Source: Myxococcota bacterium
GTDB taxonomy: Bacteria; Myxococcota_A; UBA796; CAJQPC01
DNA: 64,000 nucleotides
Reading direction: 5' to 3'
Assembly (NCBI GenBank): GCA_036012755.1
Contig: DASCPX010000040.1
Coordinates: forward strand, 1-64,000
The position numbers were made by a program, and so were the translations under genes. The notes beneath the pieces were generated by a model, which saw nothing but the letters and a program-made list of their open reading frames with translations, was not told the DNA's origin and searched no databases. Positions 7,574 through 12,079 of the stretch are shown one piece after another. Position 1 is the first letter of the stretch; every line of letters begins with the position of its first letter.

Positions 7574-7660
7574 GCGGAAGTGGCGGAATGGCAGACGCGC
7601 TAGGCTCAGGACCTAGTGAGGGTAAACCTCGTGGGGGTTCGACTCCCCCCTTCCGCACCA
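7574..7660 (+). tRNA. tRNA-Leu (anticodon CAG)
   Basis: GCGGAAG/CTTCCGC acceptor stem, D-arm, CTAGG-CTCAGGA-CCTAG anticodon arm, long variable arm, GGTTCGACTCC T-arm, encoded CCA. Confidence 0.97.
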
Positions 7661-8247: not shown

Positions 8248-9903
<1,656 letters not shown>

Positions 9904-9905
9904 AC

Positions 9906-10742
9906 GTGCTCGTCGAGGTCGACCGCTTCGATCTGGACTCCGCGCCTCGCCCCTGGCATCGCGCGCGAACCGGCGGCGTGGTCGACTTCAGCGGCCTGAA
10001 CCCCACCGCCCCGAGCCGTGGCTGGAGCGTCGTCGCAGCCCAGCGCGTCCACGGCCAGAGAGCGCTGCTCGAAGGGTTGCTGGAGGTCGGAGGGCACGTC
10101 TACGGCGTCCCCGCTGGCGCGCTGCTGTTGGTCGAGGACGGCGACACCATCGAAGAGGGGGCGCTCTTGGCCGAGTGGATCCCCTGGTACCGGCAGATCC
10201 TGGCTCCGGAGCCAGGTCGCGTGCGGATCGACGGCGACACCGAAGAGCGCCTCGACCCGCTCGTCGGGATTCCGATCGTGCGCTTTCCGAAGGGTGGCGC
10301 GGTGCGTCTCTGGGAGCGCCGCTGGGAGCTCCGCCCCGGAGCCGAGCTCTGCGTGAAGCCAGAAGAGGTCGTCGAAGCCGGCGCGCTGATCGCGAGAGAG
10401 GACGCGGCCCTCTACGTGCTGGTGCCGGACGAGCTGCGCCCGGATCCATCGCGCTGGCTGGACGAGGTCCTCGACCGGGTCCCACCGGACGAACCCCTCG
10501 GCGAGGAGCTGGCGGTCGCCTTGCTCAAGTGCCTCTCGGAGACACCACGAGACGCCCTCGCGAGGCGCCTTGCCACCGCGCACCTGCGAGAGCTCGACGA
10601 GCGCACGCACGTCTTCGAGCCGCGCATCCGCATCGGCAGCGGCAGCGCCCGGACGGATCCCCGGATGGGACAGGCGTGGACCATCGCCCAGCAGCGCCTC
10701 GAGGCAGGGGTGAGCGCCTGGAGGGGCGATCACGGAGCGTAG
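9906..10742 (+). CDS. stand-alone protein resembling the RNA polymerase beta-prime SI3 (tandem sandwich-barrel hybrid) insertion
   Basis: 3-prime part of track ORF 8865..10742; YGVPAGALLLVEDGDTIEEGALLAEWIP...GRVR...DPLVG...LRPGAELCVKPEEVVEAGALIAR; GTG 2 bp after the thiC stop. Confidence 0.65.
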   Translation: MLVEVDRFDLDSAPRPWHRARTGGVVDFSGLNPTAPSRGWSVVAAQRVHGQRALLEGLLEVGGHVYGVPAGALLLVEDGDTIEEGALLAEWIPWYRQILAPEPGRVRIDGDTEERLDPLVGIPIVRFPKGGAVRLWERRWELRPGAELCVKPEEVVEAGALIAREDAALYVLVPDELRPDPSRWLDEVLDRVPPDEPLGEELAVALLKCLSETPRDALARRLATAHLRELDERTHVFEPRIRIGSGSARTDPRMGQAWTIAQQRLEAGVSAWRGDHGA

Positions 10743-12079
10743 GTGTAGAGGTCCTCGAGCCAGGTCGTCCGCCCGATCAGCTTGTCCCCGTCGAAGGACA
10801 GGTCCCAGGCCACCTCCCCCTCCGGCGTGATCTCCCGCACCCGCGGGGTCGTGCCCGTGTTGTGCAGGGTGTTGCCACCAGGGAGGCGATGGGCCTCTCC
10901 CGCGTAGCGCGCCGTGATGCCGTCACCCTCGCCGTGACTCCAGACCTCGCGAAGGACCTGGTCGTCCTCGTCGACGGCGTACTCCCGGACGACACCTTCG
11001 TAGCTGGAGCGGTCCACCTGCGACGAGACCAGGAGCGTGCCCTCGGGGGTGTAGGTCACGCCGTGCTGGTAGACGAAGGCGGACTCCGGAGGCTCGAAGC
11101 TCCAGGAGCCGGGGACGTAGCCGAACCACCGAAGCTCCTCGCCGGTCTCCACGTCCACCTCGAGCACGAAGGTGCGAGTGGTTGGAAAAGACAAGACCAG
11201 GGTGTCCCTGGAGCCATCGAGCCAGATCGAGTTCGTGTGACACCAGTCGTCCAGCCCCTGCTCGGCGTAGAAGCCCGCGCAGTCCCAGACGGTGCTCTGG
11301 CTGCCGTCGGTGTCCTGGCGCAGGAGCTTCTCGTTGCCGGTCAGGGCGCTGCCCCACAGGATCGAGCGGTCCGGCATCTCGATGAAGGCGTGGTGCATGC
11401 CGGGCGCGTCGATGGTCTCGGTGACCACCCCGTCGAGCTTCATCCGGTGGATCTGGGAGGCGGCCCCGTCGTCCCAGTTCGACCAGTAGGTCGAGACGTC
11501 CCAGAGGATGTCGTCGTCCAGCGATGTCTGCAGGTAGATGGTGAAGTGGTGCGAGTCCCCGGGCATCGCCCACACCACCCGGCCCTCGCGGTCGATGATC
11601 CACATCCAGTACTCGCCGTCGTTCCAGCCGCCCCCGCGCGAGTTCACGCTCCCGAGCAGCCAGTTGCCGGTGGGCTCCTGCAGCGCCTCGGTGGAGCTCA
11701 ACAGCTCCGGTCGCGGGAAGCCCGCGGGCAGGTCCCCGGTTCGCGCCCGCTGGGTCTCGCTCGTCTCGGGTCCGCTGCCGTCGTCCCGCACGACGCGCAC
11801 TTCGACGCTGTCGTCATAGGGCACCCCCAGCACCAGCTGCTCGACCTCCCCAGCCTCGACCTCTCTGGGCGGAGTGCTCCGCCACAGCCCGTCCACCTCG
11901 TACTCGACATGCACCGTCGCAGGCCTCGGCTGATCCCAGCTCACCCAGATCAGTGACTCGATCTCGTCGTCGAGGCGCCAGCCGAAGGACTCGGCGATCG
12001 AGCTGTCGTCGGAGTCATCCGTGCCAGTCGTCGCCACAGAGGGCGGCTCACAGGCCAGCACCAGGACGAGACCGAGCAT
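10730..12079 (-). CDS. arylsulfate sulfotransferase (ASST) family lipoprotein
   Basis: Lipobox LAC; HHAF, HTNSI, QHG and RLPGGNTL motifs. Confidence 0.75.
   Translation of the reverse strand: MLGLVLVLACEPPSVATTGTDDSDDSSIAESFGWRLDDEIESLIWVSWDQPRPATVHVEYEVDGLWRSTPPREVEAGEVEQLVLGVPYDDSVEVRVVRDDGSGPETSETQRARTGDLPAGFPRPELLSSTEALQEPTGNWLLGSVNSRGGGWNDGEYWMWIIDREGRVVWAMPGDSHHFTIYLQTSLDDDILWDVSTYWSNWDDGAASQIHRMKLDGVVTETIDAPGMHHAFIEMPDRSILWGSALTGNEKLLRQDTDGSQSTVWDCAGFYAEQGLDDWCHTNSIWLDGSRDTLVLSFPTTRTFVLEVDVETGEELRWFGYVPGSWSFEPPESAFVYQHGVTYTPEGTLLVSSQVDRSSYEGVVREYAVDEDDQVLREVWSHGEGDGITARYAGEAHRLPGGNTLHNTGTTPRVREITPEGEVAWDLSFDGDKLIGRTTWLEDLYTYAP

Follow-up and report, generated by a model that had tools for sequence, protein, structure and literature searches.

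A free-standing homolog of the RNA polymerase SI3 domain encoded behind thiC in a Myxococcota bacterium, tentatively read as an orphan Rhs-toxin immunity protein

Results

The SI3-like gene and its locus

The window, i.e. the whole stretch of 64,000 nucleotides of Myxococcota DNA that was analyzed, carries thiC, preceded by a decayed TPP riboswitch and followed by a gene for a two-domain protein (Table 1). The preliminary description of this DNA reported an ORF of ~278 aa starting 2 bp after the thiC stop, and exactly such an ORF was confirmed: it begins with GTG 2 nt past the thiC stop codon (9901-9903), and all four motifs quoted in that description occur in its translation (residues 19-31, 66-107, 117-121 and 142-164). 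The ORF is a genuine gene. The nearest homologs of its product begin at the same Met, its GC3 of 0.86 is ordinary (29th percentile of 3952 long ORFs in the host genome G000), and a second assembly (L026) contains the same 16.8 kb with four differences, none of which lies inside the SI3-like gene. A 625-aa open frame from 8865 was rejected: its GC contents at the three codon positions (0.95/0.66/0.44) mark it as a shadow frame of thiC. A convergent gene of 449 aa on the minus strand (10730-12079) shares 13 nt with the 3' end of the SI3-like gene; it had no NCBIfam match, its homologs were found on three other contigs, and other genes stand in its place in the near relative L025.

Table 1 Features of the thiC/SI3-like locus with their positions in the window.
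Feature	Position	Strand	Basis or content
Two-domain protein gene (P0002)	9906..10742	+	278 aa + stop; SI3-like module and helical C-domain
Two tandem sandwich-barrel hybrid motifs (SBHM), RpoC SI3 homolog, residues 13-168	9942..10409	+	VIA, Foldseek, hhalign
beta-ribbon tip, residues 117-122	10254..10271	+	conservation; best match at RpoC hairpin (z 5.6 among 378 offsets)
Family-specific alpha-helical C-domain, residues ~170-275, five helices	10413..10730	+	secondary structure; leave-one-out profiles
thiC, upstream, host locus	8332..9903	+	named from sequence; no terminator-like site before the SI3-like gene
Decayed TPP riboswitch ahead of thiC	8252..8342	+	23.7 bits vs gathering score 54.3

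Homology to the RpoC SI3 insertion

A structure model calculated from a 7-sequence alignment (pLDDT 81.7) is beta-rich up to residue ~166 and continues with five helices. Comparison of this model with 48,161 chains by VIA gave as top match the isolated E. coli SI3 4iqz (Z 14.4, rmsd 2.9 A, 140 residues aligned); the isolated SI3 2auk scored Z 14.0 (rmsd 3.4, 148 aligned), and next after E. coli SI3 came cyanobacterial and plastid SI3 with Z between 7.0 and 11.9. The preliminary description had named generic biotinyl/lipoyl or HlyD barrels as the competing assignment, and these reached Z 5.4 (biotinyl, 2d5d) and Z 4.4 (HlyD, 5c21) in the same search. Every match listed by Foldseek was a beta-prime chain or an isolated SI3 (best E 2.3e-9), and an hhalign comparison between the family and 33 RpoC segments returned a probability of 99.2 (E 2e-19). 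In searches by sequence, PF21668 (RPOC_hybrid) matched with 18.6 bits (E 0.0017), which is below its cut-off of 27, rpoC2 models matched weakly, and the best 11 of 44 PDB matches were all beta-prime (best E 4.4e-4). The SI3 homology proposed in the preliminary description is thus upheld far beyond chance by Foldseek, VIA and hhalign.

The protein shares with RpoC SI3 (beta-prime i6; 4iqz, 2auk, PF21668) the two tandem SBHMs, their order and the beta-ribbon tip. Unlike RpoC SI3, it is not inserted in a trigger loop and has none of the trigger-helix motifs, whose absence had already been pointed out, it carries four deletions of 5-6 residues which shorten loops, and it is fused to a helical domain. 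Furthermore, a charged stretch that is more than 90% conserved in RpoC is replaced in the stand-alone family. Twenty positions, beta-ribbon tip included, are conserved in both the family and RpoC; most of the common residues are Gly, Pro, Ala or fold-core residues. Within the tip D117, T120 and G121 are the majority residues of the family and also occur in RpoC, and position 120 is V in the window protein; judged from the alignment, the tip would correspond to the D1051 loop of E. coli beta-prime. An SI3 insertion separates the two trigger helices of the beta-prime chain in which it lies, whereas the module described here lies in a stand-alone ORF of 278 aa, and for this reason the protein has the SI3 fold but is no SI3 insertion. 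The Phe pocket with which SI3 binds the jaw is specific to gamma-proteobacteria according to the available text of 10.1101/2021.01.27.428476 and is therefore not expected in the window protein.

As stated in the preliminary description, no other rpo gene is present in the window; matches to the Rpb1_5 family were located on the G000 contigs C39 and C80 only. Together these two contigs contain the intact rpoC of the host: its reading frame runs from the end of C39 into the start of C80, across an assembly overlap of 104 nt, and the gene retains its own SI3. A biological split of the host rpoC was rejected accordingly, since the overlap marks an assembly break.

The helical C-terminal domain

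Residues ~170-275 form a separate conserved domain, which had not been mentioned in the preliminary description. It is common to all eight family sequences, and leave-one-out profiles recovered it in all five lineages with E between 1e-3 and 1e-12. Profile and fold searches gave no significant match of the C-domain to a known family or structure, and an Atlas search scored 0.80 or less. The single-sequence model of the domain is poor (pLDDT 49), so that the fold searches made with it (best Z 6.2) are uninformative.

Two proposals for its origin were considered. A resemblance to FliG was not significant, with 3.6 bits against the FliG of the host; the FliG/MgtE-type repeat gave a single ungapped match of 36 residues to the C-domain (~1e-4 per position). 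For a kept trigger helix 2 or post-jaw helices of RpoC we obtained an hhalign E of 0.27 and segment ranks chosen post hoc only, and the trigger helix 2 segment did not rank in the first five, either for residues 179-196 or for residues 181-195. Weak C-domain matches on the G000 contigs C149 and C166 read like shadow frames. As a side observation, G000 contains a single full-length fliG-like gene (C47:102201-103238; PF01706, E 1.9e-30), because of which the lineage may have a flagellar motor.

Family, selection and phylogeny

In the protein collection clustered at 90%, four of 8000 scored candidates belonged to the family, i.e. the query and three proteins of 70-71% identity. An exhaustive search added P0006-P0008 (33-37%), and the genome search added P0024 from genome G050 of the same order, a protein which is 25% identical to the window protein. 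A search free of length limits gave 16 matches, consisting of four full-length family members and 12 that cover the SI3 part only; ten of these 12 were examined and look like RpoC pieces (P0009 and P0016 are outside those ten). Family proteins have a length of 278-326 aa, and the identity between lineages amounts to 21-36%.

Purifying selection, whose absence the preliminary description took as the mark of a decayed rpoC fragment, was evident from the comparison with the L025 ortholog: by the Nei-Gojobori method, in which dS is underestimated at this GC content, dN/dS was 0.30 (bootstrap 0.21-0.41); the SI3 part alone gave 0.34 and the C-domain 0.25. These values are similar to that of thiC (0.27), and four other neighbours gave 0.24, 0.25, 0.37 and 0.60.

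In a tree with 34 RpoC SI3 sequences the eight family rows lie on one side of a branch (98/99), at which long branches meet; a single origin of the family would be compatible with this tree, which does not demonstrate it. The SI3 of the host itself falls inside the clade of its order, and the family lies outside the host clade at the end of a long branch, with an identity of at most 32% to the RpoC SI3 sequences sampled. This long branch and the low identity point to an old recruit rather than a recent piece of the host rpoC. Independently of the family, genome G039 was found to have two rpoC-like loci on contigs C264 and C65 (L040 and L061) with a DNA identity of only 72%; L061 groups outside the clade of the order, which indicates contamination or a second rpoC.

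A literature search, light on subscription journals, turned up no described stand-alone SI3 family, in agreement with the remark in the preliminary description that none was known. Judged by the sequences collected here, the proteins represent a rare, free-standing family of SI3 homologs under selection, not previously described.

Distribution

The stand-alone gene was detected in 2 of 154 genomes of the order and in 2 of 182 genomes of the class (13-15 candidates scored per genome). All other matches in the order genomes, 13 in number (E 1e-14), were frames of 1061-1761 aa covering the SI3 part only. Two genomes of the same genus, 73% and 100% complete, did not yield the stand-alone gene, and the single positive among the 401 genomes of the phylum sample was G000 itself (6 candidates scored per genome). 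G000 contains no paralog, its sole other match being rpoC, and no family member was found in viral contigs, plasmids or phages. A search of genome contigs gave no relatives of the window protein, and with P0007 as query it gave four rpoC genes only. The genome search with the C-domain profile was insensitive, as it missed the known positive G050; it gave one weak match, in an 850-aa frame.

The thiC neighbourhood

The SI3-like gene and thiC are probably co-transcribed. In the near relative L025 the gene also stands behind thiC, with which it overlaps by ATGA, amid wide shared synteny. Another gene follows thiC in all five other relatives examined, and in G050 the homolog and thiC are on different contigs. 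The coupling to thiC put forward in the preliminary description is therefore seen here and in L025 and does not extend to a general rule. Since the gene after thiC differs in those five relatives, thiC is a landing site and not a fixed partner.

The TPP riboswitch of the window has lesions in P2, in the CUGAGA junction (changed to CUGCAA) and in P5, and the same lesions are present in L026. It is intact in L025 (62.8 bits); five relatives scored 37-66 bits, with CUGAGA kept in the aligned five. With changes in these three elements, the thiC operon of the window may no longer be thiamine-responsive. A tRNA gene for Leu (7574-7657, plus strand; anticodon CAG, read by eye) also lies near thiC, as it does in several relatives.

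An Rhs locus in G050

In G050 an Rhs gene (TIGR03696, E 6.3e-19) ends just ahead of the homolog P0024, which is encoded on the same strand, starts 16 nt past the Rhs stop codon and is preceded by a GGAGG ribosome site. The Rhs core has a GC3 of 0.85 and five downstream genes have 0.84-0.92, compared with 0.67 in the C-terminal tip of the Rhs protein and 0.70 in P0024. Because this low GC3 is common to both, tip and P0024 look co-acquired. The tip was below its own core in GC3 at 14 of the 17 distinct Rhs loci examined; low-GC tips are thus usual, and the telling point is that P0024 carries the same signature. Furthermore, only 5 Rhs-core matches occur in the 9.8 Mb of G050, which makes the slot behind an Rhs gene a rare one in this genome.

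In the tip an HExxE motif is followed further on by a His; the single homolog detected (G065, 30% identity over 114 aa) has retained both. By motif only, we take HExxE...H to be metallopeptidase-like; neither Pfam nor the PDB sequence search gave a match for the tip. No immunity family of Pfam or NCBIfam was matched by P0024. Co-folding of P0024 with the G050 tip resulted in a median score of 0.51 (runs 0.51, 0.32 and 0.68), and the best of three controls scored 0.00; at least 50% of contacts recur between runs, the partner pLDDT is at least 68, and no interface was given. Of the solved pairs 116 of 157 came up to the co-fold mark, as did 2 of 215 mismatched pairs, and in the range up to 0.60, in which 0.51 lies, there are 18 solved pairs together with both mismatches, so that the co-fold speaks weakly for binding.

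Only two tips were found in the 182 genomes, a search among proteins of 242-772 aa returned only the query tip itself, and a tip profile, used with no positive control, matched in 0 of the 401 genomes of the phylum sample. G000 (96% complete) gave no match to an Rhs core or to the tip, and the other Rhs loci from G002, G050 and G065 had no family member within the flanks examined. G065 has as its sole family match a long RpoC-type frame, and the ORF that follows its homologous tip was rejected as a C-domain homolog (1.6 bits, shuffles reaching up to 9.5).

Contig C339 of G065 (L053, frame to 6170; L052:1837-2338) encodes an Rhs protein of 2056 aa, which bears a second tip of the HExxE type. 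The ORF behind it, of ~170 aa, has no clear start site and ends helix-turn-helix-like as judged by eye; this ORF is a candidate for a different immunity gene. In G065, 13 Rhs-core matches (L062-L084) have varied tips, one of them with HExxH (L077), and constitute a large uncharacterised polymorphic-toxin set.

Discussion

Rhs C-terminal toxin/immunity cassettes, including ones with metallopeptidase tips (Rhs-CT1, MPTase4), are described in PMC6730261. In the portions of PMC12136450 and PMC6730261 that bear on this, immunity genes usually sit after their toxin and orphan immunity genes are known as well. The G050 locus resembles these cassettes in the order of Rhs core, low-GC tip and close low-GC gene, and differs from them in that the partner is built from an RNA polymerase domain and in that the HExxE...H tip is outside Pfam. 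On this basis we tentatively regard the window protein as an SI3-derived Rhs-toxin immunity protein which is an orphan in a host genome without Rhs, and assign a probability of roughly 45% to this reading. An ancient copy of the beta-prime SI3 would have escaped from the trigger loop, gained a new helical domain by fusion and been taken up as antidote against a polymorphic Rhs toxin with an HExxE...H tip. The immunity protein would bind the tip, as the co-fold hints, and neutralise what we infer to be a toxin, so protecting the cell. In G050 the gene would still stand behind its own toxin tip as a cassette, and in the lineage of the window the orphan immunity gene would have landed behind thiC and would be expressed from the thiC transcript by translational coupling.

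The patchy spread of the family (2 of 182 class genomes) together with the low identity between its lineages fits a gene of conflict better than a core transcription factor. Several points count against a role in immunity. Gene contexts were seen for two of the five lineages (window, L025 and L026; G050), the Rhs context is one locus, and no toxin adjoins the gene in the window or in L025. The homologous tip of G065 has an unrelated ORF as its neighbour, and the co-folded protein was that of G050, not the window's own. Rare horizontally acquired genes can also gather behind Rhs genes without being immunity genes, and the gene of the window is fully ameliorated and no less conserved than thiC, which fits a resident cellular role as well. 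The proteins are moreover larger than the immunity proteins of Cpe1 toxins, for which the section of PMC12136450 concerned gives 79-239 aa.

In an alternative reading the protein is a generic binding scaffold, in which the SBHM pair and the helical domain do a job unrelated to RNA polymerase or toxins and both neighbourhoods are accidental. SBHM folds are found in many unrelated proteins, the gene has different neighbours at the two loci known so far, what comes after thiC varies, and the C-domain is conserved at least as well as the SI3 part. We consider this somewhat unlikely, as it leaves to chance both the low GC3 common to P0024 and the Rhs tip and the co-fold pass. A regulator of transcription, the role suggested in the preliminary description, is unlikely, too. 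Here a free SI3 would bind the jaw/shelf or rim-helix site of RNA polymerase in competition with the enzyme's own SI3, or would soak up DksA/TraR/Gre-type factors. The positions conserved with RpoC include the beta-ribbon tip, which in the E. coli enzyme fits in between SI1 and the rim helices, as set out in the accessible text of 10.1101/2021.01.27.428476; a direct contact of SI3 with TraR in E. coli is documented in PMC6970531, as far as its text was available, and G000 holds two DksA/TraR-finger and four Gre-family matches. However, given its low RpoC identity and its long branch off the host clade, the protein is not tuned to the host enzyme, four deletions shorten its loops and the charged stretch is replaced, and the shared residues mostly serve the fold or are Gly, Pro or Ala. 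A tethered SI3 should also outcompete a free one, and the G050 cassette is left unexplained.

The arrangement at thiC, i.e. the 2-nt gap in the window, the ATGA overlap in L025, the lack of a terminator-like site between the genes and the intact riboswitch of L025, could be taken for a thiamine-linked factor, either a partner of ThiC or a link from thiamine status to transcription. This is very improbable with regard to the other genes that follow thiC in the remaining relatives, the G050 homolog, which is not near thiC, the decayed riboswitch of the window and the many further neighbours which are likewise common with L025. Hardly credible at all is a decayed fragment of a duplicated rpoC. 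Two C-domain segments, chosen post hoc, did find their best and second-best match at collinear post-jaw helices of RpoC (rank 1 of 376 and 2 of 374), from which the ancestral piece may have been longer; against decay stand the intact frames in all eight sequences, the dN/dS of the gene, the position of the family on one side of the branch (where long branches meet) and the C-domain common to the family.

If the protein is an immunity protein, a more specific version suggests itself, which we regard as rather doubtful. The HExxE tip would attack the SI3 of RNA polymerase, and the immunity protein would be a domesticated copy of the target, a substrate decoy locked on by the helical domain. Cpe1-Cpi1 provides a precedent for a protease toxin directed at essential enzymes with immunity by substrate competition: this interbacterial protease cuts GyrB and ParE, and Cpi1 confers immunity by competing at the substrate-binding site, as reported in the relevant part of PMC12136450. 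Cpe1 is a papain-like cysteine protease, and that part of the article does not describe Cpi1 as a substrate homolog. Since a viable E. coli strain without SI3 exists, as noted in the accessible text of PMC11077087, the decoy idea is directly testable.

SI3 has been studied solely while attached to RNA polymerase, and according to the available text of 10.1101/2021.01.27.428476 its origin, like its partners outside E. coli, has yet to be established. A natural, selected family of free SI3 proteins, as put forward here, demonstrates that this domain can be exported from the polymerase and put to use again. If the decoy idea were true, it would amount to an interbacterial toxin aimed at RNA polymerase together with immunity by target duplication, and a toxin decoy of this kind would be a new route of evolving immunity.
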